A stretch of 64,000 nt of DNA. It comes from a virus (lineage: Duplodnaviria; Heunggongvirae; Uroviricota; Caudoviricetes). The position numbers and the translations under genes were made by a program. The stretch lies in IMG/VR virus record IMGVR_UViG_3300032318_002198, one strand, 5' to 3'. How positions within the stretch are numbered: the first letter of the stretch is position 1; the number at the start of each line of letters is the position of its first letter. Below are positions 12,270 through 54,352 of this stretch, in pieces. The notes beneath the pieces are model-generated. The model ran no database searches and was not told the DNA's origin. It was given only the letters and a program-made list of their open reading frames with translations.

Positions 12270-12721
12270 CTATATTCATCCTTCCAAATGTTTACTATAT
12301 CATAGTCAAATCTAACATCGTCTTTGATTGATTCTTCTAGTGTACTTGTGCTGAAGAATTGTACTATGGTGCCTTGTTCTAGTGTTTTGAATCCATTTGC
12401 ATATCCTGGTGGTATGAATAGTATTCTTGGGTTAACAGCTGACAAAACTGTTTTGTATATATCTGGAATTACTGACAGCGAATTTTCTTTTATATCTATC
12501 ATCGTATCTAAACTAACTGCTCCAACAAGTGCAGAACCTTTTACTACATATATGTACTTGCCTTCATGTTTATGTCCATGCCATGCTCGGACAAAACCAG
12601 ACGAATGATTTTCGACTTGATAAAATCGTTTTACCGTATCAAAGTTAAAATCATTTACAAATCTCACCGAGCCCCTATCGTCGACAGAAACTCCACCAGT
12701 TATCAATTTTATTTGATCCAT
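12266..12721 (-). CDS. dTDP-4-dehydrorhamnose 3,5-epimerase-like cupin (RmlC-like)
   Basis: VRAWHGHKHEGKYIYVVKGSALVGAVSLD resembles the RmlC RGLHxQ...KLVRCV.GEVFDVAVD block. Confidence 0.55.
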   Translation of the reverse strand: MDQIKLITGGVSVDDRGSVRFVNDFNFDTVKRFYQVENHSSGFVRAWHGHKHEGKYIYVVKGSALVGAVSLDTMIDIKENSLSVIPDIYKTVLSAVNPRILFIPPGYANGFKTLEQGTIVQFFSTSTLEESIKDDVRFDYDIVNIWKDEYR

Positions 12722-16239: not shown

Positions 16240-16250
16240 TTAATTTATAC

Positions 16251-17327
16251 CTAGTTGATGTGGTTGGATAATAATATATTCAACACAGTTTGTGATACAT
16301 TTTTTTTGATATATTCCTCGGGTACATTCCAATTGTTCGGTTTATTATCGATAATAAAGTTATAACACCTAAGAATACTATCAACATTTAATCCACTAAT
16401 AATATTAGATCCACACCAAACTGTTTCAGGACGTTCCGTACTATCTCTAATCGTTATAGTCGGTATGTTAAAAATACACATTTCCTCTTGTACTGTTCCG
16501 CTATCAGAAATAGCCATCTTACTATTCTTTTCTAAATTAATAAAATCAAAAAAGCCAAACGGTTCTGACACAATTATATTTTTTGATTGCAAATTTAATT
16601 TTTCCATTCTGTTTTTAGTTCTTGGGTGACAACTAAAAACAACTTTATTATCTTTTGAAATAACTTCTAACGCAGAGAAAATGTTTTTTAACCGTTGATC
16701 AACATCAACATTTTCAGATCGATGTGCCGTTACAATTACATATTGAGCTTTTTCTAAATTTAGTTCATTCAAAATATTAGAAGAATCTATTTGATCTCGG
16801 TAATATTCGATTACTTCATTTATGGGGTTTCCGACTACAAAAATTTTATCATTCGCTATACCTTCTCTTAATAAATTTTGTCGACTTGTTTCAGTATAAG
16901 GCATATTGATCGATGAAATAGTATCGATAATTTTTCTATTCTTTTCCTCGGGAACTTTGAGATCGTAACATCTATTACCCGCTTCCATGTGATAGACCGG
17001 TACTCCTAAACGTTCGCATACGATTGCTGCTAAACTTGAGTTAGTGTCACCCAGTATTAATACTTTATCTGGTTTAAAGGAATTAATAGCATTTTCTACA
17101 CCCACGAATATCTTACCTAACTGTTCAGATAAAGAATTTGATTTACTGTCAATTATAAAATCACACTGTCGAACTCCTAACTGTGAGAAAAATATATCAT
17201 TAAGATTAGCATCATAATTTTGTCCTGTGTGAAGGATTTTATGATTCACATATCTGTCTAATAAAGGTATAATTCTCGACAGTCTGATAATTTCGGGTCT
17301 TGTTCCTAAAATAGTTAAAACATTCAT
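16251..17327 (-). CDS. wecB: UDP-N-acetylglucosamine 2-epimerase (non-hydrolysing, WecB-like)
   Basis: LTILGTRPEIIRLS, HTGQNYD, LGDTNSSLA and HMEAGNR are all in the WecB/MnaA order. Confidence 0.8.
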   Translation of the reverse strand: MNVLTILGTRPEIIRLSRIIPLLDRYVNHKILHTGQNYDANLNDIFFSQLGVRQCDFIIDSKSNSLSEQLGKIFVGVENAINSFKPDKVLILGDTNSSLAAIVCERLGVPVYHMEAGNRCYDLKVPEEKNRKIIDTISSINMPYTETSRQNLLREGIANDKIFVVGNPINEVIEYYRDQIDSSNILNELNLEKAQYVIVTAHRSENVDVDQRLKNIFSALEVISKDNKVVFSCHPRTKNRMEKLNLQSKNIIVSEPFGFFDFINLEKNSKMAISDSGTVQEEMCIFNIPTITIRDSTERPETVWCGSNIISGLNVDSILRCYNFIIDNKPNNWNVPEEYIKKNVSQTVLNILLSNHIN

Positions 17328-17367
17328 AAAGTTCTTTCTTTAATTATTATTATACACAATTCGGTTA

Positions 17368-18984
17368 TCAAAGGTCAATAAGTTTCCTGTTAATTAATGA
17401 TGGTATTCTACTTTTAATAGTTTCGGGTAAGTTAGATGTAGGTATGTTTATTTTTTCTAATGGTTGTTCATTAAAATGAACTTTTTTATTTTTAATTGAT
17501 GTCTCTAATAATAATTGATTTTCCTTGAACTGTTCATGCATGTTAGATTCACAAACGCTGTTAAGTTTTTGCACTACAGCATCTAATCCTCCAAGATAAG
17601 AAAAATGCCATCCACCGTGTACATGCAATCTATTACCTTTAAATCTTTGATTTCTAATTTCTTGAGGAGTTGTTCCATCTAACAATATATGCCATCTTGT
17701 TAAATGACTACCACACCATTTATAATTGGCTTTGTAATTTAGATAATAATAATACATGTCCTGTTCCAGACCAAATGTCAATTGAACATTATTATTATGA
17801 TAAAATTTAATAGCTTCGTGATTAGGAATCTCATCTAAATCAGATATCATTACTATATCATCACGATTTAAATCTAATCTATCTAACCCTACTCTAATGT
17901 TATTTCTTTGATAATGTTCATTATCCCAAGAACCATACGCAGTAGATATAGGATTGTCAACAATTACATGTACAATTTTATGTAAGTATTTTGAAAAACG
18001 GTGTTTATTCTTTTCAAAGTATAATTCTTTTTTATTACCCAATTGAGTGAATCTTGCTTCGACTAATACAAAATGATCTATTATAGGATCAAGATATTCT
18101 AACCGTATCTCCAAAAGATCCAATTCGTATTCTAATCCAAACATGAAACAATCCACTATTTGATCTTTGAAATTTGATCGATTTTTATCAAAAACCTTGT
18201 GTTCATTAAAGTTACCTATTTGTGTTTCATTTTGAATAGATTCCAATAATACTCTATTTTTTTCTACTAACGAAGGTAATAAATCCGTAGGGAATTGACT
18301 AGTATGATATTGATGTACACAAAGAGGCGATTCGACAAATTTAACATTTAAATTCTTTCGTTTAATTCTGATAACAAATTCGTCATCATCATAACTCACT
18401 CCGTTTGAAAATCTTTCATCAAATCCATTTAATTCTGTTAAATCAAATCTAGTAATTGCAGACATAAAATGATACATCACCGGTCTATATGTTGGATGAT
18501 TATACCAAGCAGAGATACTAGGATCAACTACTCCTACATTGTTAAATGTAACGACACCGCCGCCCTTCATTATGTTTGTCTCGTGCTCATTTGTAGCATA
18601 ACAATTAAAAGAAAAATATTCTCCAATGTTTAAATTATTTTCAACGTATGAGATAATATCGCCTATGTGACAACATTCAGGATTTTGAATAATTATCTTA
18701 TCACCTTTAGCGTGTCTAAATCCAGTATTGTAAACCACACATGGATTATAATATGATCTTTCGTCATATAGATCGGACATTTTTATTACGGTGATAGGTA
18801 ATTGAGGGTAATTCATTTTACCGATCAATGGATCGTGTACTTGATCACTGAAATCATCTACGATAATTATTTCATAGTCAGTGGATTTTGTGTAACGTAT
18901 GGTTTCTAAGGTATATAGTAAATGTGGCAATCTATTTTTATATGCCATGACGATTGAAATCATCTTAAATCCTTTGCAAAGCAA
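17368..18984 (-). CDS. Two-domain glycosyltransferase: N-terminal GT2 plus C-terminal GT-A-like domain (GT17/MGAT3-like?)
   Basis: ISIVMAYKNRLPHLLYTLETI (GT2 start). The C-terminal half has DCFMFGLEYELDLLEIRLEYLDPIIDHFVLVEA...ISDLDEIP. Confidence 0.55.
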   Translation of the reverse strand: MLCKGFKMISIVMAYKNRLPHLLYTLETIRYTKSTDYEIIIVDDFSDQVHDPLIGKMNYPQLPITVIKMSDLYDERSYYNPCVVYNTGFRHAKGDKIIIQNPECCHIGDIISYVENNLNIGEYFSFNCYATNEHETNIMKGGGVVTFNNVGVVDPSISAWYNHPTYRPVMYHFMSAITRFDLTELNGFDERFSNGVSYDDDEFVIRIKRKNLNVKFVESPLCVHQYHTSQFPTDLLPSLVEKNRVLLESIQNETQIGNFNEHKVFDKNRSNFKDQIVDCFMFGLEYELDLLEIRLEYLDPIIDHFVLVEARFTQLGNKKELYFEKNKHRFSKYLHKIVHVIVDNPISTAYGSWDNEHYQRNNIRVGLDRLDLNRDDIVMISDLDEIPNHEAIKFYHNNNVQLTFGLEQDMYYYYLNYKANYKWCGSHLTRWHILLDGTTPQEIRNQRFKGNRLHVHGGWHFSYLGGLDAVVQKLNSVCESNMHEQFKENQLLLETSIKNKKVHFNEQPLEKINIPTSNLPETIKSRIPSLINRKLIDL

Positions 18985-29366: not shown

Positions 29367-29585
29367 ATGGATGAACAACTAATGATCAAAAAGAAATACG
29401 ATCAGATTCAAAAAAAACTCAAAGGAGTACAGTCTGAATTAGATTGGTTGCAAGAAACATGTAAGCATCCATCTGCCAACGCAAAGCACAGGGGAGATAG
29501 AGGTAACTACGATCCATCAATGGATCGGTACTGGATTGAATACGATTGCCCGGACTGCGGCAAATTTTGGACGGAGGACAAATGA
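29367..29585 (+). CDS. Zn-ribbon small protein, paralogue A (C-terminal CPDCGKFW)
   Basis: About 80% nucleotide identity to 40686-40907, with shared KYxQIQKKLK...HRGDRGNYDPSMDRYWIEY.CPDCGKFWT. Confidence 0.55.
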   Translation: MDEQLMIKKKYDQIQKKLKGVQSELDWLQETCKHPSANAKHRGDRGNYDPSMDRYWIEYDCPDCGKFWTEDK

Positions 29586-29788
29586 ACGAACGAATTCGAG
29601 AACTTGCTGATGAGGCTGCGAAATACAGTGCCATAATGGCTCTTCCTACAGGTGAGTCAGGAGACAAATTATTTGTTGAAAAGTTCGCCCATTTGCTTGT
29701 TAATAAGTGTGCCATGATTGGCAACTATGCTCACGACGGTGGCGAATATCCTGGACCAATGATCAAGGAATATTTTGGAGTTGAATGA
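29582..29788 (+). CDS. MNERI-family small protein
   Basis: ATGAACGAACGAAT start overlapping the upstream stop; ends YFGVE. Confidence 0.6.
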   Translation: MNERIRELADEAAKYSAIMALPTGESGDKLFVEKFAHLLVNKCAMIGNYAHDGGEYPGPMIKEYFGVE

Positions 29789-32487: not shown

Positions 32488-32557
32488 AACGTAAATTGAC
32501 TTTAAAACAGTTTATACTATAATTATCACTATAGTAAAGTTACAAAAGAAAGTAATT

Positions 32558-32947
32558 ATGAATGCTACTAAGAAATCTTCTGTATATGATCGAAAAATTA
32601 AAAAATTTCATAGAAATACAGAAGTGATTAGCTATCGAGATCTGCATACTTTTGACGAATTTATTGAGAAAATTAAATCATTAAAACAAAAATATCTGGA
32701 ACATGAATTTTTGTATAAGAGAACAGTTACTTTTGATTTACATGGTCATCTTGTGATGGATGTAACAGTATCCGGCGTGGAATCTGAGAACGAATATAAG
32801 AAAAGAATCGACAAATACGAAAAGACTAAGATAGCTAGGAATGCAGCGGCAGAAAAAAGACGTGCCCAATTATTGAAGAAAGAAATAGAAGAGTTTAAGA
32901 AACTGAAGAAATCACTAGAATCCAAAGTTAATCTTGATGCTATTTGA
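32558..32947 (+). CDS. Hypothetical Lys/Glu-rich coiled-coil protein
   Basis: 129 aa ORF. Confidence 0.45.
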   Translation: MNATKKSSVYDRKIKKFHRNTEVISYRDLHTFDEFIEKIKSLKQKYLEHEFLYKRTVTFDLHGHLVMDVTVSGVESENEYKKRIDKYEKTKIARNAAAEKRRAQLLKKEIEEFKKLKKSLESKVNLDAI

Positions 32948-32997
32948 AATGTGTGTTACATATTGACTATATCACTGCTTTACGTTATAATTAAAAT

Positions 32998-33312
32998 ATG
33001 ATATTAGAACTGTTAACTAACCTCGAATATGCTGCAAAAGCAGGGAGATATCAGTCATGTATACAAAAAGACAACAATATTTCTATCTTGTACAACGATG
33101 AATGGATTAAATGGGATCCGGTTAACGATGATGGCGATTCTATAAGATTAGCAAATAAATGCAATTTATCTATTAGTCGTCGCAATGGTGCAGTATTCGT
33201 GGTAGGCGACGATTATTTTTGCTGTCAAGAAAAGTACTACGATGATCCTAATGCTGCTCTCCGAACTGCAATTTTTCGAGTAGCTGTTGATATAGGAAAA
33301 AATTTAAAATGA
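32998..33312 (+). CDS. Hypothetical protein
   Basis: 104 aa ORF. Confidence 0.4.
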   Translation: MILELLTNLEYAAKAGRYQSCIQKDNNISILYNDEWIKWDPVNDDGDSIRLANKCNLSISRRNGAVFVVGDDYFCCQEKYYDDPNAALRTAIFRVAVDIGKNLK

Positions 33313-33629
33313 AACTATATATCGCCGTTCTTGACGAATTTCCTGACTACATGACTCCTACTCTTGTAGCACATAGCGTATTATCCTCTCACCTCAAATT
33401 TCAAGACGATCTTACCTATAAAAAATGGTTAGCTGACTCATTTAAAAAATGTGTAGTTAGAGTCAATCAAAAAGAATTTGATAAGATCGCAGAACTTCCC
33501 AATGTTCATTTAGGACACGAAAACAATACATTGGGTGGAAAAAAGTCATGTGCTGTTGTATGCCCAACTGAGGATAATCTTCCTAACGTTCTTAAATATG
33601 CTAAACTTTGGAAACCATTAATTGTATGA
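33309..33629 (+). CDS. Peptidyl-tRNA hydrolase PTH2-like protein (tentative)
   Basis: About 106 aa. CVVRVNQKEFDKIAEL...SCAVVCP resembles PTH2 IVLKVNSEEEL...TVLGIGP. Confidence 0.3.
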   Translation: MKLYIAVLDEFPDYMTPTLVAHSVLSSHLKFQDDLTYKKWLADSFKKCVVRVNQKEFDKIAELPNVHLGHENNTLGGKKSCAVVCPTEDNLPNVLKYAKLWKPLIV

Positions 33630-34063
33630 AGAAATTTTTTTTAGACACTGAATTTAACGGCTTCGGCGGAAAACTGATATCTATGGCGATAGTACCAGAA
33701 GATCGTAACATAAGAGAATTTTATGTAGAATTAGAGATAAAGGAACAACTACATCCATGGGTCAAAGAAAATGTAGTACCGCATTTAATTTTAGTCCCAC
33801 AGTCTATGAATTCGTTTCAACAATCTCTTGCACAATATCTTTGGGAAATAGGAGAGTGTGTTATTGTTGCGGACTGGCCAGATGACATTAAATATTTTTG
33901 CGAGTCATTGATCACTGGCCCTGGCATGTCTATTAATTTGATGCATAATATCAAATTTGAATTGAATTTTAGTATTCAATATGAATCTTCGGTACCACAT
34001 AATGCATTGCATGATGCTAGGGCAATACGTGATTCTTACTTAAAAAATATACAAAATGGATAA
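33626..34063 (+). CDS. DEDDh 3'-5' exonuclease (DnaQ/oligoribonuclease-like)
   Basis: Exo I motif FLDTEFNGFGG, Exo III motif HNALHDARA. Confidence 0.7.
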   Translation: MKKFFLDTEFNGFGGKLISMAIVPEDRNIREFYVELEIKEQLHPWVKENVVPHLILVPQSMNSFQQSLAQYLWEIGECVIVADWPDDIKYFCESLITGPGMSINLMHNIKFELNFSIQYESSVPHNALHDARAIRDSYLKNIQNG

Positions 34064-34382
34064 GATATTTAAAAAAGTAGATCGTAGAACTCCGGGACAC
34101 GAAAATTGGAAATATTATATTCCGAGACCCAAAACTCATTATATGCCAACATATACTTTGTATGAAAGCAAACAAACGTTCTTTGAATGGAGGAAATGGT
34201 GTACCGAAACTTGGGGACATAGTAAAGAATTCAATGATTGGTTAGAAGACTTAGCACAATCTCCTGAGCAAAGAAGTTGTTTTAACGAGCATTGGTGTTA
34301 TCAAAACAATGAATATCATTGTAGAATATTCTTACGTACAGACAAAGATTTGAGCATTTTTTTACTTAAATGGGCGAGTTAA
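34056..34382 (+). CDS. LRWS-array family member (divergent, ends LLKWAS)
   Basis: The start overlaps the exonuclease stop. The next start is embedded in the KWA codons (AAATGGGCG). Confidence 0.5.
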   Translation: MDKIFKKVDRRTPGHENWKYYIPRPKTHYMPTYTLYESKQTFFEWRKWCTETWGHSKEFNDWLEDLAQSPEQRSCFNEHWCYQNNEYHCRIFLRTDKDLSIFLLKWAS

Positions 34383-34603
34383 AATTTATCGATATTAAAA
34401 TAAACGACTTCATGGAATTATTACATGAATTAAAATCAAACGGATTGATACTTAATCAAGACTTCGAATGGCGTTATCAACCTACTAAAATTATCGAAAC
34501 TCACGACCATAAATTTGAAGTAGAAGAAAAATATTGTATTATTAAATTTTATAATTTAAAACATCTCACCTTTTATTCTTTAAAATGGAACAAGTATCTA
34601 TAA
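34370..34603 (+). CDS. LRWS-array family member (divergent, ends SLKWNKYL)
   Basis: Array position; K-W motif near the C-terminus. Confidence 0.45.
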   Translation: MGELKFIDIKINDFMELLHELKSNGLILNQDFEWRYQPTKIIETHDHKFEVEEKYCIIKFYNLKHLTFYSLKWNKYL

Positions 34604-34815
34604 GCGGTTACGTACAACCATGGCATAGTGTTAAATTACAGTTTTATTCCTTGGGAAGAATATCCCCCGCACACTGGTGTGATAAACAAAACTGGCAGGA
34701 AAATGTAGATTATATTATCTTGACAGAAAAACGAGTAATTAACTACTTGTTCAAAAATGCAAAACATGCTACAATGTTTAGACTGTATTGGTCTTCCTAC
34801 ATAAAGGATTCGTAA
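34585..34815 (+). CDS. LRWS-array family member (divergent, ends MFRLYWSSYIKDS)
   Basis: MFRLYWS retains the family core. Confidence 0.45.
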   Translation: MEQVSISGYVQPWHSVKLQFYSLGRISPAHWCDKQNWQENVDYIILTEKRVINYLFKNAKHATMFRLYWSSYIKDS

Positions 34816-35108
34816 TGAATAATTCTGCAATTAACAATGCAATTACTGCTGTTGCTCAAGCATTAGATAACATTGACCTTGGTCCGAACAAAATCCAGAT
34901 GAAAACTGGAAAGGCAAAAAGTTGGCTCGGAGAATATCATTGGGCTAGTCTTGCAAAAGATCCCGATGCCGACGATAATACTGATCCTGCCATTGAATGG
35001 TGTTTGGAACATTTTGGCAAAAGTGGTGCTAGGTGGTATCCTTATAATGGAAAATTCTTTTTCAAAGACGAACGAGATATGAGTATGTTTATTCTAAGAT
35101 GGTCATGA
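34815..35108 (+). CDS. LRWS-array family member (ends KDERDMSMFILRWS)
   Basis: TAATG overlap start; canonical C-terminus. Confidence 0.6.
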   Translation: MNNSAINNAITAVAQALDNIDLGPNKIQMKTGKAKSWLGEYHWASLAKDPDADDNTDPAIEWCLEHFGKSGARWYPYNGKFFFKDERDMSMFILRWS

Positions 35109-35389
35109 CATATGATATCCCCGATACTACGCTAGTAGACGACTATATTCTAATAAAACTGTGGAACGATTATATCGTTAATCATCCAGACCTTAATCTC
35201 ATAGGTAAACGACTTGTTCGAGGTTACTATACAAAACATATTCACAAGTTTGGTTATAATATATTTGTAAAAGAATTTCAAGATTGGTTATGGAATCAAG
35301 GTGGAACAGTAATACTAAAAGATAAAAAGCAGTATATTCAATTTACTGATCCACAACAGGCAACTGTATTTCTGTTGAGGTGGGCATGA
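35099..35389 (+). CDS. LRWS-array family member (ends QQATVFLLRWA)
   Basis: ATGGTCATGA junction. Confidence 0.6.
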   Translation: MVMTYDIPDTTLVDDYILIKLWNDYIVNHPDLNLIGKRLVRGYYTKHIHKFGYNIFVKEFQDWLWNQGGTVILKDKKQYIQFTDPQQATVFLLRWA

Positions 35390-35622
35390 AACGATCGACA
35401 ATTCATAAAATTTCATTCGGTCGAAATCGATATCACCAACATATTGAAATGTATAATTGGTGTGAAAGGCGTTTCGGTTACGGCAAATGGCTTACGGGCA
35501 CACCAAACAGTTGGGTAGGATTGGAAAATCTAAATTGGTGTGTTGATAGTATGTTTGGTAATACTACATTTGCTTTCAAAGATCCAAAACATTTATCTAT
35601 GTTTTTACTGAGGTGGTCATGA
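35386..35622 (+). CDS. LRWS-array family member (ends KDPKHLSMFLLRWS)
   Basis: GGGCATGA junction. Confidence 0.6.
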   Translation: MKRSTIHKISFGRNRYHQHIEMYNWCERRFGYGKWLTGTPNSWVGLENLNWCVDSMFGNTTFAFKDPKHLSMFLLRWS

Positions 35623-35858
35623 TACCAAAATTTAAGAAGGCTCAACACCCCGATCTTTGCGATAGATGGGAAATCTACTTCGATATGTGGGATCCAAATC
35701 GTAAATTTGATTTAGTAATGGAATGGTGTTGGACCACATTTGGTCGCCCAAATATTAAGTTTGTAACCGGAGTAAAAAGCGTTTGGGATTCTCACGGGAG
35801 ATTCATATATTTTTATGACGAAAAGTGTGTTACAATGTATATGTTGAGGTGGTCATGA
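35619..35858 (+). CDS. LRWS-array family member (ends DEKCVTMYMLRWS)
   Basis: GAGGTGGTCATGA junction. Confidence 0.6.
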   Translation: MIPKFKKAQHPDLCDRWEIYFDMWDPNRKFDLVMEWCWTTFGRPNIKFVTGVKSVWDSHGRFIYFYDEKCVTMYMLRWS

Positions 35859-36220
35859 GAACTAGTATTTGGTATCGCACTAACCAACATCAACCTGATT
35901 CATCAGGTTACTACCTGTCTTATCGTGGTTGGGGGCTGGGCGGCAAAGCAGACGGTGATAGTACGTATGGATATTTGTGGTACAGTAAGAAAACTAATAA
36001 ATGGTATGAATATCAAGGAGATGAACGATCCATGCATCCAAGTACCTGTATGGTTTATTATTGGACTGATGCTACACCAGATGACTGGGTAGACAACGAG
36101 CAAGTAGGAAGCCAGTATCAAAACATCTCCAAAAATCCTACATTAAAAAGTGCTTGGCAAGATGTGTTAGCTGCTATTGAAAAATTTAAAATAATCGAAG
36201 CATTAGTAAAGCAAGCGTAA
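35855..36220 (+). CDS. Trp/Tyr-rich hypothetical protein embedded in the array (no LRWS tail)
   Basis: Starts at the canonical junction ATG but ends ALVKQA. Confidence 0.5.
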   Translation: MRTSIWYRTNQHQPDSSGYYLSYRGWGLGGKADGDSTYGYLWYSKKTNKWYEYQGDERSMHPSTCMVYYWTDATPDDWVDNEQVGSQYQNISKNPTLKSAWQDVLAAIEKFKIIEALVKQA

Positions 36221-36221
36221 T

Positions 36222-36448
36222 ATGGGATACAAACTTTCTATTGAACGCCATGAAAACAACGGAATTAATGCCGATGCTTTTGGTAATTTCATCATGCATT
36301 ATATCGACCTTTGGGAGCTAGAAGGCTCCGGCTTCGACAGGAAGATTGACAACGTTCTAAAAACATACGGTGCCAAAGATATATTGGGCGAGCCAGCTAT
36401 AGAGTTTGAAACTTAACAACAGGCACTATTTTTATTGAGGTGGTCATG
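36222..36448 (+). pseudogene. LRWS-array member interrupted by an in-frame TAA (36414-36416). Readthrough would add QQALFLLRWS.
   Basis: ...IEFET*QQALFLLRWS* in one frame, comparable to the intact ...FTDPQQATVFLLRWA of 35099-35389. Confidence 0.5.
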
Positions 36449-36649
36449 AGAGTAGATATAAGGCCCTACTGGAAAAATCTAACTAATTGGTATTGGGACG
36501 AAAGTCAAAACAATAGGGGCGGATTTAGCATTTGGGAAATACTAGAAGAAGACTACGGGGCCCGCTGTGTCCATGTGAGCGGCCGGGGATTTCTCATGGA
36601 GTTCCCAGATGAAAAAGCGTATATGTTGTTTGTGTTGAGGTGGTCATGA
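36446..36649 (+). CDS. LRWS-array family member (ends DEKAYMLFVLRWS)
   Basis: GAGGTGGTCATGA junction. Confidence 0.6.
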   Translation: MRVDIRPYWKNLTNWYWDESQNNRGGFSIWEILEEDYGARCVHVSGRGFLMEFPDEKAYMLFVLRWS

Positions 36650-36900
36650 AAATTACAAAATATTGGGAAATTTCTGCCAATAACATAAGTGCAGATGATT
36701 ATGATTTTTATTAAAATTAAATTGTGATGTTGAAACTATTGAAGCAGAAATAACAACTCTTACTACTGTTACTGGATTCACTTATAAGGTCATAACTAGT
36801 CCGCAAAAAATAATAATCAAAACCGCTTGCGAAAAACAAGAAATTATGTTATTATTAAAGTACGATTCTAAGATATTCCTCACTAATCGAGAAATTACAT

Positions 36901-37303
36901 ATGAATTTGATTGAAAAATATCGTGCTTGGAAAGAAAAACAATTTCTAAAAAAAACACGGCTGTGAGACTCGCGAACAATACAATTATAAGTACGACCCT
37001 GATATAAACGATCGTGCTACTAGAATAAAAGATTATTACCATGGATATCCCTATTTTTATTGTTTCGAAGATCGTGAACATGAAATATATTATTGGGATT
37101 TAGGAATCGACGGGGTTTATGTAACCAATAAATCGTGTAAAGAGAATCTAACAGGTATGTTTCGTTTTGACTTTCACCGTGCTACAAAGGCACCATCTAC
37201 TGCCAATGAATGGGTAACAAATGAGCTTGGCGGTGGCGACTATATTTTCTTTGCATGCAAAGATCCAAAAGATTATACACTGTTTTTGTTGAAGTGGTCA
37301 TGA
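36901..37303 (+). pseudogene. LRWS-array member disrupted by a frameshift in an A8 homopolymer (36948-36955). ATG at 36901 gives MNLIEKYRAWKEKQFLKKTRL*, and the +1 frame continues ...CETREQY...DYTLFLLKWS.
   Basis: The family C-terminus FLLKWS plus the canonical GTGGTCATGA junction occur in the +1 frame with no in-frame ATG. A poly-A tract sits at the frame switch. Confidence 0.5.
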
Positions 37304-37545
37304 AAATTACACAAGATCAAATCAAGAATCAAATTAATAATTGTTTCGAAGCATTTGACCCTCGGTGGCTAGAATCTTTCGGAACAGCCCAGCAAAAAAA
37401 TAGTTTCAAACAGCATCTTGAAAAAACTGCTGGAATAAAAGTTGAAATAGAAAACGATTATAGAGAGAGAATGTCATACAGACTTGCAAGTATTGAAGTT
37501 GTTGATGAATCCAAATTAACTTGGTGGATCCTGAAATGGTCATGA
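37300..37545 (+). CDS. LRWS-array family member (ends ESKLTWWILKWS)
   Basis: Junction ATG. Confidence 0.55.
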   Translation: MKITQDQIKNQINNCFEAFDPRWLESFGTAQQKNSFKQHLEKTAGIKVEIENDYRERMSYRLASIEVVDESKLTWWILKWS

Positions 37546-37862
37546 CAATTAGCATACCAAAACTTAAAAATATTGATCCCGTACTTGTGGCACCTAGGAT
37601 ACAATCTTATCCTGTTAAATCTCCAAAACATTGGCCATGGCAGTATTATTTACGAGAGTTAGAAGTAGAATACAACAATTGGCGGCGTACTTATACTACA
37701 AACGAAAGAGGTATGAAGGATGTAAATGATATTATGCAGGACCTGTATCCTGGACCATATCGTGTTGTAGAAAAGTATCTATCAGATAGAATGGTTATTG
37801 GATTTGGTTTAGAATTTGATGATCCTAAAGAAGAAACTTTTTGGCTATTGAAAAACTCATGA
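37536..37862 (+). CDS. LRWS-array family member (ends DDPKEETFWLLKNS)
   Basis: AAATGGTCATGA junction. Confidence 0.55.
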   Translation: MVMTISIPKLKNIDPVLVAPRIQSYPVKSPKHWPWQYYLRELEVEYNNWRRTYTTNERGMKDVNDIMQDLYPGPYRVVEKYLSDRMVIGFGLEFDDPKEETFWLLKNS

Positions 37863-38083
37863 ATACTACAATTAAATTGCCTGAGTCTCCCATAACAGTA
37901 TGGGATAACAAAATCCTGGTAGACTACCCATTTATATATCAATTAAACAGAGTTGGTATTTATATTGACGCATTAACATTTGCAAGAGAAAACTTTAATA
38001 CAGGTTCATATACTTGGAAAGGCACGAAGTTCTTTTTTAAGAATGAAAAAGATGCTATTTGGTTCGCATTGAGGTGGTCATGA
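37859..38083 (+). CDS. LRWS-array family member (ends NEKDAIWFALRWS)
   Basis: TCATGA junction. Confidence 0.6.
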   Translation: MNTTIKLPESPITVWDNKILVDYPFIYQLNRVGIYIDALTFARENFNTGSYTWKGTKFFFKNEKDAIWFALRWS

Positions 38084-38337
38084 AAGTAAGTCGTAGAACA
38101 ATTAATTCAGCATTTCATAACGCATCAAACACGTTTAGGAAACAATGGAATTCCACATGTTATGCCGGATACACTACTGCAGAAATAAAAAAACAATTTT
38201 GGAAAGACTTTAGTAAAGCACATAATATCAATATTACCATCAATGAATTTAAATCGGATTATTATCCTGTTATCAACGACACTATAGAATTTAATAACGA
38301 GCAAGATTATCTTATGTTTTTGTTGAGGTGGTCATGA
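38080..38337 (+). CDS. LRWS-array family member (ends NEQDYLMFLLRWS)
   Basis: GAGGTGGTCATGA junction. Confidence 0.6.
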   Translation: MKVSRRTINSAFHNASNTFRKQWNSTCYAGYTTAEIKKQFWKDFSKAHNINITINEFKSDYYPVINDTIEFNNEQDYLMFLLRWS

Positions 38338-38516
38338 AATTTGAAAAGAGAAGTAACGGATGGTTTATGACAAATATACAAGGTGATACCATTGATATTT
38401 ACATCTGGTGTCAAAAATTGTATGGGCCGTGCGGCTCACGGTGGGAACACTACTCAGGAAATTTCATGTTTCAAAAAGAATCTGACATGACAATGTTTGT
38501 ATTGAAGTGGGCATGA
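38334..38516 (+). CDS. LRWS-array family member (ends KESDMTMFVLKWA)
   Basis: GAGGTGGTCATGA junction. Confidence 0.6.
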   Translation: MKFEKRSNGWFMTNIQGDTIDIYIWCQKLYGPCGSRWEHYSGNFMFQKESDMTMFVLKWA

Positions 38517-38722
38517 TTAAGAAACAATATCACCGCCATGTCGCCGATCCTTGTTACTTTAATAATTTCTTGCAATCATTGGGCGTTGACGTTACATTAG
38601 ATAAGTTAAACGTTAAACTAACACTATATAAAGCTACTATTGCCAAGTCAAAGTTTAATAAAATAAATGTTAAATGGAATGATCCTAAATTGTATGCTTA
38701 TTTTATTTTGAGATGGTCATGA
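38513..38722 (+). CDS. LRWS-array family member (ends NDPKLYAYFILRWS)
   Basis: GTGGGCATGA junction. Confidence 0.6.
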   Translation: MIKKQYHRHVADPCYFNNFLQSLGVDVTLDKLNVKLTLYKATIAKSKFNKINVKWNDPKLYAYFILRWS

Positions 38723-38940
38723 AAACAATTAATGTATCAGCAGAAAAATGGTATAACTATTGGACACAGGCGGCTTATGTACATGGTGAATGTTACCGAG
38801 GCAGCATAGCAATGTATAAGATGCTAGAAGAAGATTATTCAATTATCAGATGGCGAGTAGGTCACTATGACGAAAATAACGTCACGATAACTTATACCGA
38901 CGAAAAGTTAATCACAAAATTTATCTTGCAATATGCATGA
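38719..38940 (+). CDS. LRWS-array family member, last in the array (ends DEKLITKFILQYA)
   Basis: AGATGGTCATGA junction. Followed by a 9-codon stub starting at GCATGA. Confidence 0.55.
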   Translation: MKTINVSAEKWYNYWTQAAYVHGECYRGSIAMYKMLEEDYSIIRWRVGHYDENNVTITYTDEKLITKFILQYA

Positions 38941-39036
38941 AAGTTAATCTTCAACTTGTTCTGTAGCAATGGTCATCCGACAGCATTGGTATTTTAACGA
39001 AATAGGCCATCAATTTTAAATGTTAAGGTTAATTAA

Positions 39037-39423
39037 ATGAATAAAAATCATGTACATTGTTTCGAAAGAGAATTTGAAGCAACAGTAACACAGTCTACTA
39101 ACAGAAGAATGCAAATAATTGAACCGTATACTCTTGATTATAAGTATCCTGGCATTACACTTCAAACAAAGTCAGTACCTGCTGTTGAAATTGTAATGCC
39201 CGAGGATCAATTTTATAATCTTCTTGAAGAAGTAGACAAAAAAAGCGATGAGAATATACATTGGTTAACCTATAAACAATATCAGAATATATACGGAACA
39301 GAATGGCCTTATCGATTTTCTGATATGATGACAAGAGAAGCACTAGAAGAAAAACTACGTAATTCAAATGCTGCACTCAAAAAAGCATGGGATTATTATC
39401 AACTGCTGTTAAAAATGTCATGA
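39037..39423 (+). CDS. Hypothetical protein
   Basis: 128 aa ORF. Confidence 0.45.
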   Translation: MNKNHVHCFEREFEATVTQSTNRRMQIIEPYTLDYKYPGITLQTKSVPAVEIVMPEDQFYNLLEEVDKKSDENIHWLTYKQYQNIYGTEWPYRFSDMMTREALEEKLRNSNAALKKAWDYYQLLLKMS

Positions 39424-39607
39424 TTAGTTTAGAAATTCCATATGAAAAATACTTCGCCGTTTGTGATTGATGTAAAAAGAATATCAGCGAACAAAAATAT
39501 TACTTACATCATAGATGTGGTGGCGATGGCTGGGAATTAATAGATCGTAAAACAATTATGATAAAAGATGAGAAAAAAGCATCGATGCTGATTTTAACAT
39601 GTTTGAC

Positions 39608-39636
39608 TTGACTATTTCCAAAAAAAAGCGTACAAT
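39608..39636 (+). promoter_or_regulatory. Sigma70-like promoter (TTGACT, 17 nt spacer, TACAAT)
   Basis: TTGACT at 39608-39613 and TACAAT at 39631-39636. Confidence 0.5.
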
Positions 39637-39714
39637 AGATGTTGTGTGCTATTAAAAAACATTTCGGAATTGAACAATGAGTCTTAATCCCTTGATACTA
39701 TTAGGAATTGAATA

Positions 39715-40035
39715 ATGACTTTGTTTAGACACATCAACAGTCTTGTTATGAACAATCAATTCTTAGAGAGCGAGGCTAACATGACACTGAGCAAATACAC
39801 ATTTGAGCGAACTGAACTCCGAACTCTACAAAATATGTGTGAGGGAGACAATGAGAAATTTCTGAACCTACTTGCTGATATGATCGGCGAGCGTGATGAA
39901 CAGATTCACCATCTTAAACAACAAATAGCCGATGACAGTTGGGACATTAACCCAGATAACATGGGTGGTGCATTCACACAAGACGAAATTGATGATGCGG
40001 TAATGGCGTTAAAAGAACATTTGGGAGTAAAATGA
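39715..40035 (+). CDS. Hypothetical protein
   Basis: 106 aa ORF. Confidence 0.45.
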   Translation: MTLFRHINSLVMNNQFLESEANMTLSKYTFERTELRTLQNMCEGDNEKFLNLLADMIGERDEQIHHLKQQIADDSWDINPDNMGGAFTQDEIDDAVMALKEHLGVK

Positions 40036-40223
40036 TGAAAGAAGGAATTGACGAGTTCTTCAAAAAATCATGGAACGTAACCGGAACTAAATTCACACCA
40101 TCTCATTTGGAATGGTTAAGTTGGCTTGGTCAACCAATGCTGTATGACGGTGGGTTATGCGTGAATCGTAACCCAGAAGAACACTTTGTTAGTGATCAGC
40201 GCCGGGGGAGTTTGATGATATGA
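40032..40223 (+). CDS. Hypothetical protein
   Basis: 63 aa ORF. Confidence 0.4.
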   Translation: MMKEGIDEFFKKSWNVTGTKFTPSHLEWLSWLGQPMLYDGGLCVNRNPEEHFVSDQRRGSLMI

Positions 40224-40435
40224 ACGAACGAATCCAACAACTTGCTGAACAAGCAGGTTTGTATGATGAAAAATCTCCCGACGAGGTACCGGAGTTCACT
40301 GCTTGTTTTGAGAAGTTTGCCGAGTTGATTATTCGGGAATGTGCGGTGTATGTCAAAAATTCAAATTGCTTTACTTACGCTAGTCAAGCAGACTTATGTG
40401 CTGAAAGAATGAAAGAACACTTCGGGGTTGAATAG
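40220..40435 (+). CDS. MNERI-family small protein
   Basis: ATGAACGAACGAAT start; KFAELIIRECAVYV...HFGVE. Confidence 0.6.
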   Translation: MNERIQQLAEQAGLYDEKSPDEVPEFTACFEKFAELIIRECAVYVKNSNCFTYASQADLCAERMKEHFGVE

Positions 40436-40689
40436 TGAACGAAGCAATGAAAAATTGTCCATTCTGCGGACATATAGTAGACATGGATAACCCAGATACT
40501 CTATACCCTAACGGCACGGGATGGGCGATTCGCTCCAATGGAATGATTAGTTATCATTCGTTCCGTGATGTGCCAAAAGAACAATGGTGTTACAGCATTC
40601 ATTGTGTAACAACATCAGGCGGATGCGGAGTTGAAATAAGTGGTAACTCTGTACAAGAATGTATTGAAAAATGGAATAGACGTTCATGA
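40435..40689 (+). CDS. Lar-family restriction-alleviation protein (zinc ribbon)
   Basis: N-terminal NCPFCGH...; C-terminal C..C...VQECIEKWNRRS matches the Lar pattern CPFCG...C..C....A..aWNrR. Confidence 0.55.
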   Translation: MNEAMKNCPFCGHIVDMDNPDTLYPNGTGWAIRSNGMISYHSFRDVPKEQWCYSIHCVTTSGGCGVEISGNSVQECIEKWNRRS

Positions 40690-40907
40690 ACCTAGAACAA
40701 ATAATTATCAAAAACAAATACAATCAAATTCAAAAAAAACTCAAGAGCGCACAGTCTGAGTTAGAACGATTGCAGGGAACTTGTGAGCATCCAAATGCTG
40801 AAGTAAAGCATAAGGGTGATAGGGGAAACTATGATCCTTCAATGGATCGATACTGGATTGAATACAATTGCCCTGACTGCGGCAAATTTTGGACAGATGA
40901 AGAATGA
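40686..40907 (+). CDS. Zn-ribbon small protein, paralogue B (C-terminal CPDCGKFW)
   Basis: About 80% nucleotide identity to 29367-29585. Confidence 0.55.
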   Translation: MNLEQIIIKNKYNQIQKKLKSAQSELERLQGTCEHPNAEVKHKGDRGNYDPSMDRYWIEYNCPDCGKFWTDEE

Positions 40908-41341
40908 ACGCTTGTAGTCATTTGCCTAATGCGGCACATATTGACCGTATTATTGAGTCTGTAAAATCACATACTAAAGTTTGGGATGCGGCTTATAATG
41001 CGGCTTGGGAGGCGGCTCAGATTGCGGCTCGGGATGAGGCTTATAATGTGGCTCGGGGTGAGGCTTGGTTTGCGGCTAGTGATGCGGCTCGGAATGCGGC
41101 TTATTATGCGGCTCGGGTCGTGGCTTCTGGTGCGGCTCGGGGTCCGGCCTGGCTTGCGGCTTCTGGTGCAGCTTGGGGTGCGATTCTAGCACTTATCGCA
41201 TACGATGATGCTGCCAAATACCTGAACATGTCTGTTGATCAATTAAAGATGTGGGCAATACTTAGTGAAGAACCAGCCGCAATTCTACTACTACCAGCAG
41301 TGATTGCATTTGAAAAAATTAGTGTATTGGAGTTGGCATGA
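40904..41341 (+). CDS. Ala-rich protein with 4-residue periodic repeats (x-A-A-[RWY])
   Basis: AAYNAAWEAAQIAARDEAYNVARGEAWFAASDAARNAAYYAARVVASGAARGPAWLAASGAAWGA. The underlying 12-nt unit NNNGCGGCTYGG repeats about 16 times. Its start reuses the MNERI-family ATGAACG. Confidence 0.5.
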   Translation: MNACSHLPNAAHIDRIIESVKSHTKVWDAAYNAAWEAAQIAARDEAYNVARGEAWFAASDAARNAAYYAARVVASGAARGPAWLAASGAAWGAILALIAYDDAAKYLNMSVDQLKMWAILSEEPAAILLLPAVIAFEKISVLELA

Positions 41342-41598
41342 ACGAACGAATTAAAGAACTATATCTCAAAGCACACAGCACTCGCTACTACGATGGTGAT
41401 CCTGCACTTGATGGAAATCCTCCTACCGTATATTGGGGTGGTGAGCGTAGTGCTGAAAAATTCGCCGAGTTGATCCTTACTGAAGTCACAGATATTCTTG
41501 CTACTTATCGTATGAAGGCTATATTTGTAGACGGTATTGAATATAATTGTCAACACCCTATCTACGCAATACGAAAACATTTTGGAGTTGAAGAATGA
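41338..41598 (+). CDS. MNERI-family small protein
   Basis: ATGAACGAACGAAT start; KFAELILTEV...HFGVEE. Confidence 0.6.
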   Translation: MNERIKELYLKAHSTRYYDGDPALDGNPPTVYWGGERSAEKFAELILTEVTDILATYRMKAIFVDGIEYNCQHPIYAIRKHFGVEE

Positions 41599-42227
41599 AC
41601 GACATTACAGGGAGGACAGATTTTATAGAAACTTGGCTAACTGAGATGCCACAAGGGCTAGGTTCATTTCCTACTTTTGATCAGGTAGAATACACAATCA
41701 AAGATCGCATTAAATCTGGTAGCCCTGTTATTGATGTATCTAACAATACAAAAAAAATTGTTGGTCAACAGGTTATGTACTATTGGGTAGAATCTTCATT
41801 TGGAGAAATTATTCTAGGAATAGAACTACAAATCAAACTTCAGGGTTTGGTAGTATCAGTTACTGGTAAAAATCCAAAATATAGTGGAAACCCGCCCTAT
41901 GCTTCTGATCTATATAATCTTATTCTCAAGGATAGTGGAAAAAGCATCAGACTTATCAGCGATGATTCATTGAGCGATGAAGGATATAGTATTTGGAAAA
42001 GGCTATTTCAACAGGGACACCATATTTCAGTATATGATCGCACATCGCCAGGCAAAAGTTTTACCACACTGAATTCCATACAGGATATGGATAGATACTT
42101 TGCTAATGACGATACTAATTTTAGACAATATCAATATGTTTTATCTGAAGCTGGAGAAGTACTGGCAGAAACAAGAAGTTACTTTAACACACGACGAATG
42201 CGTGAACTAATACCGGGGTTACTATGA
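41595..42227 (+). CDS. Hypothetical protein
   Basis: 210 aa ORF. Confidence 0.5.
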   Translation: MNDITGRTDFIETWLTEMPQGLGSFPTFDQVEYTIKDRIKSGSPVIDVSNNTKKIVGQQVMYYWVESSFGEIILGIELQIKLQGLVVSVTGKNPKYSGNPPYASDLYNLILKDSGKSIRLISDDSLSDEGYSIWKRLFQQGHHISVYDRTSPGKSFTTLNSIQDMDRYFANDDTNFRQYQYVLSEAGEVLAETRSYFNTRRMRELIPGLL

Positions 42228-42463
42228 ACGAACGAATCTATGAACTTGCAGAGAGTTGCACCGTTGATTTTGTTGATGGTCGCGGTGTGTCTCTCAGTGA
42301 AATTGATGTGGGAAAATTCGCCGAACTAATTGTTCAGGAATGTGTTACAATTTGCGAACAACAAAGAACAAAGATTTTGCAAAACCCCAACGACCCGAGT
42401 TGGACTGAGCATTTGGCAGAAGTTCAAACCAATATTAAACAACGCTTTGGAGTTGAAAAATGA
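42224..42463 (+). CDS. MNERI-family small protein
   Basis: ATGAACGAACGAATCTATGAACTTGC start, identical over 26 nt to 3948. KFAELIVQEC...RFGVEK. Confidence 0.6.
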   Translation: MNERIYELAESCTVDFVDGRGVSLSEIDVGKFAELIVQECVTICEQQRTKILQNPNDPSWTEHLAEVQTNIKQRFGVEK

Positions 42464-51439: not shown

Positions 51440-54352
51440 ATGACAACCCGTGCTCCATTATCACAAGTTACACAAGATCCTGGATTAACTAATCCTACCG
51501 AACAGGAAACAATATTTGTTGTAGTCGATTCAGGTGTTGAACAGAAACTAACTGTTGCACGAGCTCGCCAATTATTAAACACACAAGGTATTCAAGGTGC
51601 TAGTGGTGTACAAGGACGTCAAGGTTTCCAAGGACCACAAGGGTTTCAAGGACGTCAAGGTTTTCAAGGTGCTCAAGGTTTGCAAGGAGCATCTGGTGTT
51701 CAAGGATTTACTGGATTTCAAGGTTTCCAAGGTGCGCAGGGTATTCAAGGTCGTCAAGGATTTACTGGTACCCAGGGTGTTGGCGGGCCAGGTATACAAG
51801 GATTTCCAGGTACACAAGGTTTTCAAGGTGCTCAGGGTTTTGGTGGTGCAGGTATTCAAGGTGCTCAAGGTGCCCAAGGTTTCCAAGGATTTACAGGTCA
51901 TCAAGGTTTCCAAGGACATCAAGGTATGCAGGGTTCTCAGGGATTCCAAGGATTCCAAGGTGCTCAGGGAGTGGGCGGGGCACCGACCGGTCCTCAAGGT
52001 TTTCAAGGTTTTGATGGTCGCCAAGGACAGCTAGGAAGACAAGGTTTCCAAGGTGCTGATGGTATACAAGGAAGACAAGGTTTCCAAGGTGCTGATGGTA
52101 TACAAGGAGCTCAAGGATTCGGAGGCACAGGAATTCAAGGTGCTCAAGGTGCTATAGGTACTCAAGGTTTCCAAGGTGCTCAGGGTATACAAGGATTGCA
52201 AGGATTTCAAGGTGCTCAAGGTGCACCATCGGCAGGCGGTGTACAAGGTGCGCAAGGACCTCAAGGTATTCAAGGACCTCAAGGTTTCCAAGGTAATTCA
52301 GGTTTTCAAGGCGCTCAAGGTTTCCAAGGAAGTCAAGGAAATCTAGGAAATCGAGGTACTCAAGGATTTGATGGATTTCAAGGTATTCAAGGAGCTCAGG
52401 GATTACAAGGTGCTCAGGGTGTTGGTGGACTTGGTATACAAGGATTTCCAGGTACACAAGGTTTTCAAGGTGCGCAAGGAAATCAAGGTTTCCAAGGTCA
52501 TCAAGGATTCCAAGGCGCTCAAGGTATGGGTGGAGCACCAACGGGACCACAAGGTTTCCAGGGTGCGCAGGGATTCCAGGGCAATCAAGGATTCCAAGGT
52601 GCGCAAGGATTCGGTGGCGTTGGTTTCCAAGGTCAACCTGGTTTCCAAGGCGAAACAGGTTTCCAAGGTTTCCAAGGCAATCAAGGTTTCCAAGGTGCTC
52701 AAGGTATAGGCGGTGCACCGACCGGTCCTCAAGGTTTTCAAGGCCATCAAGGTTTTCAAGGACGTCAAGGTTTCCAAGGTGCCCAAGGTGTCGGTGGGCC
52801 TGGTATACAAGGATTTCCAGGTACACAAGGTATTCAAGGTGCGCAAGGATTCGGTGGACCAGGTATTCAAGGTCCGCAAGGTATTCAAGGACCGCAAGGT
52901 ATTCAAGGACGTCAAGGTTTCCAAGGTGCGCAGGGTGTCGGCGGGCCAGGTATTCAAGGATTTCCAGGCACACAAGGTTTCCAGGGTGCTCAAGGACCGC
53001 AAGGTATTCAAGGTCGCCAAGGTTTTCAAGGTTTCCAAGGTGTTCAAGGCGCTCAAGGTAATATAGGTGGTCCAGGTACACAAGGTTTCCAAGGTCACCA
53101 AGGATTTCAAGGTAATCAAGGTAATCAAGGTTCTATAGGATTAAGAGGTATTCAAGGTTCTCAAGGTGCCCAAGGTTTCCAAGGTGCTCAAGGTATTCAA
53201 GGTTTTCAAGGAGCGCAAGGTTTTGCTGGAGTCGGGAACCAAGGTGTTCAAGGCGCTCAAGGTATACAAGGACATCAGGGATTCCAAGGTGCTCAAGGCC
53301 CTAGAGGTCAACAAGGTATACAGGGTCCTGAAGGTATACAAGGGCCTCAAGGATTTACTGGCAATCAAGGCTTCGTGGGAGATGCCGGTGCTCAAGGGCC
53401 CCAAGGATATCAAGGATATCAAGGTATTCAAGGTGCGCAAGGTTTACAAGGTGCTCGAGGAACTCAAGGATTAGATGGCGTTCAAGGTTCATCAGGTGTG
53501 ATAGGAATACAAGGTGCTCAAGGTTCTCAAGGACAGGTAGGCCCGCAAGGATTACCTGGTATTCAAGGTTCTCAAGGACGAGATGGATACCAAGGACCAC
53601 AAGGTTTTACCGGACGACAAGGTGTTCAAGGAGCACCGGGTTTCCAAGGAGAACCAGGTTTCCAAGGAAATCAAGGTTTTGCTGGACTAGGTGCTCAAGG
53701 TTTCCAAGGTGCTCCTGGAATTCTAGGAGTACAAGGACGAGATGGATTCCAAGGTCAACCAGGTTTCCAAGGTAATCCAGGTTTCCAAGGTGCTCCAGGT
53801 CCAAACGGTATTCCCGGTAGTCCAGGTCCAAACGGTATTCCCGGTAGTCCAGGTCCAAACGGTATTCCCGGTAGTCCAGGTCCAAACGGTATTCCCGGTA
53901 GTCCAGGTCCAAACGGTAGTCCAGGTCCAAACGGTACCCCCGGAACATTGAGTTTAGCAAATGCTGTAGTGTATACCAACGGCTCAGCGACCGCACAAAC
54001 CACAACCAGTCTCCGTTATGACGGATCTACCTTAAGTGTTACTGGAGCAATTGTTGCAACCGGTGACATAACTGCATTTTCAGACGAAAGACTAAAGACC
54101 AATATTACAACTATTGACGATGCCTTAACTAAACTTGATCAGATTAATGGATATTTGTATACTAATTCAACTACTGGTAAACGTCACACTGGTGTTATTG
54201 CACAAGAAATTATTAAAGTATTACCAGAAGCAGTAATGAAAAATAACAATGATTATTATTCAGTTGCATACGGTAATTTAATTGGTTTATTAATACAAGG
54301 TATTAAGGAACTCAATACAGAAGTAAATTCATTAAAGAAAAAATTACAGTAA
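51440..54352 (+). CDS. Collagen-like (G-X-Y triple-helix repeat) tail fibre with C-terminal S74 intramolecular-chaperone autoproteolytic domain
   Basis: About 750 residues of uninterrupted GXY (GFQGAQG...). The C-terminus [29 protein letters not shown]...[15 protein letters not shown] matches peptidase_S74. Confidence 0.85.
53795..53920 (+). repeat. Four perfect tandem copies of a 27-nt unit (CCAGGTCCAAACGGTATTCCCGGTAGT, encoding PGPNGIPGS) plus a partial copy, inside the collagen-like gene
   Basis: Exact nucleotide identity across all four units. Confidence 0.85.

Follow-up and report, generated by a model that had tools for sequence, protein, structure and literature searches.

Why should a long row of small, divergent phage genes end, one after another, in nearly the same few codons? 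The question is raised by positions 34056-38940 (+ strand) of a 64,000-nucleotide stretch of DNA from a tailed virus (Caudoviricetes; IMG/VR record IMGVR_UViG_3300032318_002198), which was analyzed at its full length and is called the window below. The best explanation of the whole, to which we assign a probability of about 70%, is that the region is a tandem multigene family that belongs to the accessory genes, probably transcribed early, of an uncultivated ~332-kb phage. One short sequence would be under three constraints, as the end of a protein helix, as the ribosome-binding site and start codon for the gene that follows, and as a recombination site. This could explain simply how the accessory gene sets of giant phages grow, shrink, and change order with expression left intact.

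A listing of open reading frames (ORFs), with starts corrected, placed 18 paralogous small genes (15 intact, 3 disrupted) and one unrelated gene in the interval, all on the + strand. An earlier note on this DNA, made from the letters alone, had described at least 16 paralogues there; the array was confirmed, but the count is 18, three members are disrupted, and the first three carry variant tails. Most of the array ORFs end in the consensus [FW]-x-[FWV]-[KND]-[DE]-x-x-x-x-x-[MWL]-F-x-L-[RK]-W-[SA]-stop. An external hidden Markov model (HMM; A6), trained on proteins of other metagenomes only, matched 13 window ORFs at E<0.01, all of them on the + strand within 34044-38719, and none elsewhere in the 64 kb. 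By BLASTP, 53 of 74 members were linked over at least half their length, and 59 orthologue groups were obtained from the window and the related loci L001 (an NCBI metagenome contig) and L003. Orthologues of the window and L001 had a pooled pN/pS (ratio of nonsynonymous to synonymous differences per site) of 0.42.

The DNA at the junctions between successive genes is itself repeated. The motif TTGAGGTGGTCATGA, allowing up to two mismatches, was present in 10 copies, all on the + strand at 35375-38722, whereas shuffled sequences held a mean of 0.17 and a maximum of 1, and none of 100 reached 10. The last codons of the upstream gene, TTG AGG TGG TCA TGA, contain a Shine-Dalgarno (SD) sequence, GAGGTGG, whose GAGG lies 5 nt ahead of an ATG that shares bases with the TGA stop. 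This 4-nt stop/start overlap, ATGA, was found at 13 junctions of the window; TAATG or GTGA forms occur in relatives. Codon use was evaluated in 57 tails from the window, L001, and L003, aligned on the stop codon and with orthologues included; the long ORFs of the window served as background. Arginine at position -3 was encoded by AGG in 38 of 43 cases (background 7%), leucine at -4 by TTG in 45 of 54 (background 20%), and lysine at -3 by AAG in 7 of 12 (background 27%). The final residue was variable (S, T, A, P, E, or L), but its third base was A throughout, except for a G ahead of a GTG start. At 34 other ATGA-type junctions of the window, taken from a simple ORF scan, GAGGTGG was never found, and 13 used GGAG. 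As read from the sequences, the synonymous codon choice at L-R-W proves selection acting on the nucleotides and bears out the earlier proposal that the LRWS codons dual-encode the SD GAGGTGG and an ATG overlapping the stop. Because the codons of the helix end are also a strong SD and an overlapping ATG, each gene carries the start signals for its downstream neighbor. The last gene of the row (member 18), which has no overlapping downstream gene, has lost R-W and carries LQYA in place of LRWS in the window; its counterpart in L001 has likewise diverged (FILQYT). A member ending in LLKNS shows that the loss of W is tolerated by the protein. Both cases fit an SD-driven component in the conservation of R-W.

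Upstream of these codons, conservation over ~20 residues is one of amino acids, with ordinary codon usage; at positions -6 to -17, residues are kept with mixed codons. Conserved are F at -6, D, K, E/P, and D/N at -10 to -13, F at -15, and F/I at -17, with TTT/TTC, GAT/GAC, and CCA/CCT in use. The nucleotide-level bias at the tail end and the residue-level conservation upstream of it thus represent two superimposed layers of constraint. AlphaFold2 predicted a beta-beta-alpha-beta-beta-alpha fold for the 60-residue member 16 (38334-38516; pLDDT, the predicted local distance difference test score, 92) and returned a pLDDT of 94 for an 84-residue member of the 'YHSPG' subfamily. In both models, which are compact alpha/beta folds, the conserved tail forms the last strand (F-x-F), a turn (KDEKD), and a C-terminal helix ending in L-R-W, so that the tail belongs to the folded core and is no free peptide. 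In an hhalign comparison, the final 40 residues connected the 'YHSPG' subfamily with the general family (probability 96%, E=2.8e-9). Each gene would accordingly specify a small protein composed of a variable N-terminal part and a conserved C-terminal module of ~40 residues. The predicted order within the module would be a helix (xWCxxxFG), a beta-hairpin (RW...), a strand (F-x-F), a turn (K-D-E-K-D), and a C-terminal amphipathic helix (x-x-M-F-x-L-R-W), and the protein would terminate one residue past the Trp.

The junctions also mark the places at which related arrays differ. L001 has 42 listed members in 11 kb versus 18 in the window, and the blocks shared by the two are 75-95% identical in DNA. 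BLASTN resolved 10 collinear blocks. Every block begins 14-50 nt ahead of a junction stop, and all but one end within 5 nt of such a stop; the exception continues beyond the array end. The differences comprised whole genes. Member 7 (35619-35858) is missing in L001, where two junctions overlap by 14 nt at the deletion point. Member 5 (35105-35389) is swapped for a different, unrelated member, the order of 36446-36649 and 36646-37303 is reversed, and genes that are otherwise collinear are parted by five insertions, of one to ~14 cassettes each. Between L004 and L003, with flanks 95-99% identical, two clean two-gene indels were found with junction overlaps of 25-38 nt. All informative breakpoints lay inside a junction (overlaps of 14-38 nt) and none within a gene body, and a single hybrid junction was retained, as predicted for homologous exchange between junctions. 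The synonymous divergence (dS) of orthologue pairs from the same two genomes ranged from 0.04 to 1.3, the mosaic expected of cassettes with separate histories.

With the 15-25 near-identical bases that junctions share, recombination between them would lead to gain, loss, replacement, or reordering of entire genes and would leave reading frames and start signals intact. The relatives differ by exactly such products, indicating that the array evolves by cassette birth and death. The earlier note had proposed the junctions as recombination sites, and they coincided with the breakpoints in every comparison with relatives; from this pattern, we infer junction recombination as the mechanism. Recent tandem amplification with near-identical copies, a 'gene accordion', was rejected, since the paralogues are too divergent (13-40% identity).

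The best sigma70-like promoter upstream of the block is located at 32963..32991 (+; TTGACT-17-TATAAT, 11/12 match). Promoter-like sites were not enriched within the array (41 sites versus 38.6 +/- 6.1 in shuffles), none was placed at a junction, and + strand terminator-like sites numbered 0 in 32500-41500. A long polycistronic transcript is thus plausible; it probably serves for translation of the entire row, without intergenic space, and has 32963..32991 as candidate start. Translational coupling had been called obligatory in the earlier note. This is not supported, as the strong and well spaced SD permits independent initiation; the predicted accessibility of the junction SD/AUG (0.42) did not differ from that of random positions (0.47 +/- 0.15), leaving structure-dependent coupling unsupported either way.

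The genes of the array are, in order:

34056..34382, +, member 1: 108 aa, tail FLLKWAS, HMM E=0.003
34370..34603, +, member 2: 77 aa, variant tail YSLKWNKYL, orthologue at L001 177-413
34585..34815, +, member 3: 76 aa, tail MFRLYWS with a 7-residue extension, HMM E=3e-6
34815..35108, +, member 4: 97 aa, canonical core EWCLEHFGKSGARW...FFFKDERDMSMFILRWS, junction CTAAGATGGTCATGA, HMM E=1e-21
35105..35389, +, member 5: 94 aa, tail VFLLRWA, HMM match
35386..35622, +, member 6: 78 aa, tail MFLLRWS, HMM match
35619..35858, +, member 7: 79 aa, tail MYMLRWS, HMM match
35855..36220, +, non-family gene: 121 aa, no family or HMM match, conserved at L001 1432-1797
36222..36449, +, member 8: disrupted, in-frame stop TAA at 36414-36416, eleven codons short of the normal end
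36446..36649, +, member 9: 67 aa, tail LFVLRWS, HMM match
36646..36914, +, member 10: frameshifted, degenerate tail MLLLKYDS with an extension
36901..37303, +, member 11: frameshifted, tail LFLLKWS, HMM match
37300..37545, +, member 12: 81 aa, tail WWILKWS, P0001, HMM match
37542..37862, +, member 13: 106 aa, tail FWLLKNS, junction TTGAAAAACTCATGA without SD
37859..38083, +, member 14: 74 aa, tail WFALRWS, HMM match
38080..38337, +, member 15: 85 aa, tail MFLLRWS, kept in orthologues P0004 and P0008-P0014, HMM match
38334..38516, +, member 16: 60 aa, minimal domain, HMM E=7e-16
38513..38722, +, member 17: 69 aa, tail YFILRWS, orthologues P0007 and P0015-P0020, HMM match
38719..38940, +, member 18: 73 aa, end of the array, 96-nt gap downstream, tail FILQYA, no SD

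The start of member 1 overlaps the 3' end of a DexA-like exonuclease gene, and the ATG of member 2 arises within the K-W codons of member 1. Members 1-3 have variant tails with short extensions (LLKWAS, SLKWNKYL, RLYWSSYIKDS), and their overlaps differ from the rest. A 332,457-bp contig encodes P0006, which is identical to member 1, and window proteins were found on that contig. The non-family gene, which the earlier note had described as captured at a junction, takes its ribosome-binding site and start from the family junction of member 7. Its pN/pS in comparison with L001 is ~0.36. The last 10 codons of the member 8 remnant (QQALFLLRWS, 36417-36449) still give an SD and ATG to the next gene, and the L001 orthologue (1799-2041) reads through (...EFETEQQALFFILRWS...). 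Member 10 has T5 at 36705-36709 where the intact L001 gene (5363-5626) has T6, and member 11 has A8 at 36948-36955 where the intact 133-residue gene of L001 (5613-6014) has A7. These adjacent homopolymer frameshifts, within 250 bp of each other, may reflect pseudogenization, slippage-prone sites, or assembly errors. L001 likewise has an A7-run frameshift shortly before a tail, at ~6390-6428. The SD-less junction of member 13 is kept in L001 and L003.

The family is widespread in metagenomes. A word-indexed profile search returned 248 proteins, and the contigs bearing members reach 213-343 kb. A full HMMER scan of 1.84 billion representatives yielded at least 225 clusters (50% identity) at E<=0.001, all from metagenomes. 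Among the 150 clusters listed, the proteins had 44-139 residues, with the exception of one of 2,194 residues, and nearly all were matched C-terminally; most of the representatives listed terminate in LRW or LKW plus one residue. The source names shown for family proteins were all 'hypothetical protein'. At the distant loci L006 and L008, with 8-11 members per 20 kb, the LRW tail is kept with other junctions (TCATAATG, GCGCGATGA), and AGG is still dominant there, one member using the Arg codon CGG. The protein motif is therefore older than the exact DNA junction, and C-terminal conservation holds in close and distant relatives alike. An assembly artifact was rejected, since assemblies made independently (NCBI, ENA, JGI, and Logan) contain orthologues.

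The earlier note had not recognized the family, and neither Pfam-A nor PHROGs v4 contains a model that matched the module at the thresholds used, either in individual scans of 17 window members and 3 proteins taken from relatives or homologue searches (20 in all; two other ORFs of the array were scanned as well) or in 143 outside representatives. The sole matches were to Gp23/major-head-protein models and concerned the N-terminal part of 5-6 outside members. A profile search of the PDB gave no match, and no sequence-profile or fold match indicated homology to solved structures. Among 50,697 phage records, nothing was matched by megablast with the region or by tblastn with three of the family proteins, and BFVD returned only uncharacterized proteins of uncultured phages and, at weak E-values, of Agrobacterium phage Atu_ph07. 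Two neighboring proteins had their best matches exclusively in jumbo phages (30% and ~45% identity; PA5oct-like; Dickeya/Erwinia), so that the phage is not assignable to a known genus. In the literature searched, no description of such a family or array was found; only work on promoter-early stem-loop (PeSL) cassettes and general reviews of coupling were retrieved.

Several points weigh against the account given here. The 57 tails are not independent, because orthologues are included; the window alone gives AGG 6/8 and TTG 9/12. The SD is absent at some junctions (LLKNS and the first three members), and the scheme is thus not universal. Three window members are disrupted, and the two homopolymer differences could be assembly errors. 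Since all tails are alike, BLAST blocks enter the tails under any mechanism, and the placement of breakpoints is partly built in; selection for intact genes could likewise make indels appear gene-precise.

What the proteins do is a separate matter, and the architectural and evolutionary account is rated much higher than the functional inference. Tentatively, and at somewhat less than even odds, we regard them as a diversified small host-interaction repertoire engaged in host takeover or anti-defense; the conserved module would act as a folding scaffold, and the variable parts would confer specificity. An accessory host-interaction role fits the DexA-like exonuclease upstream and the weak Lar-like match downstream, as well as the high copy-number turnover, the relaxed purifying selection, and the concentration of conservation in core-forming residues. 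The proteins might instead be nucleic-acid-binding regulators or phage structural or assembly factors. We consider this unlikely, although the fold resembles ACT/KH/ferredoxin-like alpha/beta sandwiches, which are often ligand or RNA binders, and the widespread 'YHSPG' subfamily is highly conserved over many contigs in a housekeeping-like manner. With at least 225 clusters and up to 42 listed copies per 11 kb, the family constitutes a candidate pool of host-interaction or anti-defense proteins.

A bolder form of the host-interaction reading, which appears quite unlikely to us, takes the family to be a combinatorial 'display scaffold'. The ~40-residue C-terminal module would stabilize varied N-terminal baits or decoys, and the array would be a rapidly reshuffled anti-defense or host-takeover repertoire. 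The dual-coding junction would have evolved so that any cassette order is expressible, as a translation-level counterpart of integron or PeSL cassettes, and one recurrent subfamily would present the most conserved segment of a T4-type major capsid protein. This subfamily is found at L001 9625-9963 and L002 1641-1979 and in 5-6 of the 143 outside representatives, and is absent from the window. Its ~50 N-terminal residues match Gp23 (PF07068 positions 5-61, E=3e-9; phrog_138) and are followed by the LRW module. The segment IIPIIRNLYPKLIAQQIVGVQPM... resembles what we take to be the Gol region of T4 gp23. Gol is highly conserved, binds EF-Tu, and triggers the Lit abortive-infection system. Judged from its sequence, the Gp23-like segment could be a decoy or an EF-Tu binder. 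A description of Gol is available (PMC3014915).

The gene-precise differences between relatives might also result from illegitimate recombination or replication slippage together with selection for intact operons, in which case the junctions would not be a substrate of homologous recombination. The identity between junctions is indeed short (15-25 nt), and BLAST blocks would stop in the tails anyway. We nevertheless hold this to be very unlikely, because each informative breakpoint is a single hybrid junction with an overlap of 14-38 nt and no scar, order swaps and replacements are seen besides deletions, and PeSL-mediated shuffling in T4-type phages sets a precedent for short repeated regulatory motifs (PMC2839356, PMC4122927).

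It appears highly improbable that the C-terminal tail is primarily a shared sorting, interaction, or degradation signal (virion packaging or protease/chaperone recognition) and that the SD is secondary. Most listed representatives do stop one residue past the Trp, Arg or Lys occupies -3 in 55 of 57 tails, though helical periodicity suggests that this residue is probably solvent-exposed, and one subfamily bears a major-capsid-protein fragment. The spacing between SD and start, however, explains the fixed protein end equally well, and R-W has disappeared from the last member, which lacks a downstream gene. The earlier note had likened the tail to the capsid-targeting sequence (CTS) of T4 internal proteins; the comparison with a detachable signal is not supported, because the tail is predicted, with confidence, as a core strand and a packed terminal helix, and the T4 CTS is N-terminal and cleaved. 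That the tails are purely a nucleotide-level initiation cassette shared by unrelated ORFs, with no real protein family behind them, is barely credible and largely refuted: the strong synonymous SD bias, the body-less tail remnant before gene 36446, and the ATGA that stays fixed while the last residue varies speak for it, but residue conservation with mixed codons reaches at least 17 residues upstream, the BLASTP links and the 13 window genes found by the external HMM tie the bodies together, distant phages keep the tail with different junction DNA, the AlphaFold2 folds are confident, and the 'orphan' tail is accounted for by the nonsense mutation in member 8.

Other parts of the window were noted in passing. 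A second small paralogous family, with the N-terminus MNERIKELAEQAG... and the C-terminus ...HFGVE, has scattered copies in the window and is arranged as a long tandem array at L001 12129-18584. Its tail codons, TTTGGAGTTGAAGAATGA, likewise combine an SD (GGAG) with an ATG that overlaps the stop, which brings the families with a dual-coding tail in this phage to at least two. The copy at 40220-40435 matched nothing in Pfam. The window copies of this family are:

39715-40435
3395-3628
29585-29788
41341-41598
42227-42463

A third small paralogous family, with a C-terminus of the ...AATRRAIVRAAAEIGRNMK type, is tandem in L001 (16582-17819) and has one window copy just upstream of the array (32998-33312), which gave no significant Pfam match. 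Positions 40447-40689 encode an 80-residue zinc-ribbon-like protein with a sub-threshold Lar match (PF14354, E=4.7e-5, 24 bits versus a cutoff of 28.6). The 436-residue ORF at 55-1365 matches a phage 'transposase' PHROG very strongly (phrog_506, E=3e-120), a sequence match that suggests a mobile element within the phage genome. The region 52001-54000, within the tail-fiber-like ORF 51440-54352, has a GC content of 0.50 versus ~0.35 elsewhere and contains long antisense ORFs; it may be a repeat-rich or horizontally acquired fiber segment. Only the C-terminal ~130 residues of this ORF (842-970) match long-tail-fiber distal subunits of Vibrio phages. A low-GC block (0.30-0.32) on the - strand at 11442-18984, which includes a methyltransferase-like ORF, interrupts the otherwise + strand organization and is adjoined by a + strand glycosyltransferase-like ORF at 10380-11378.

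The closest known system is that of the PeSL cassettes in the hyperplastic regions of T4-type phages (Arbiol et al. 2010, PMC2839356; Comeau et al. 2014, PMC4122927). In both systems repeated short expression signals flank small accessory ORFs, and whole ORFs are inserted, deleted, or replaced at the repeats between close relatives. PeSL units are non-coding, consist of an intergenic promoter and terminator, and make each ORF its own transcription unit. The repeat of the array, in contrast, is coding, being the end of a protein helix, acts at translation, and leaves no intergenic space. Neither the sigma70-like early promoter between ORFs that defines PeSL units (none at junctions, where genes overlap by 4 nt) nor the stem-loop terminator beside it (0 + strand sites in 32500-41500) was found. 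PeSL ORFs are unrelated ORFans, whereas the array is one paralogous family.

Overlapping gene pairs with an SD embedded in the upstream gene are commonplace (PMC12548453). The array shares with them the four-base stop/start overlap and the SD within upstream coding sequence; it differs in that the SD codons are a conserved C-terminal motif of a family, occur more than 15 times in a row, and are reused as a recombination site, coupling itself being putative. Tandem paralogues are also known from large viruses, as in the 'gene accordions' of poxviruses, the multigene families of African swine fever virus, and paralogue families of large phages. Common to these and to the array are tandem paralogues of strain-variable copy number that are presumed to face host defenses; the phage copies are old (15-35% identity) and not recent amplifications, and their units are tiny (60-130 aa) with a dual-coding junction. 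The internal proteins of T4 resemble the family in that small phage proteins, diverse in other respects, share a short conserved terminal peptide. The T4 CTS sits at the N-terminus, is cleaved by the prohead protease, and lies outside the fold, whereas the conserved part of the array proteins is C-terminal and forms a predicted structural core, the N-termini being variable and without a leader. Cassette shuffling in phages of the PeSL kind is thus known; what is new is a coding repeat built on a protein family that no Pfam-A or PHROGs model matches.

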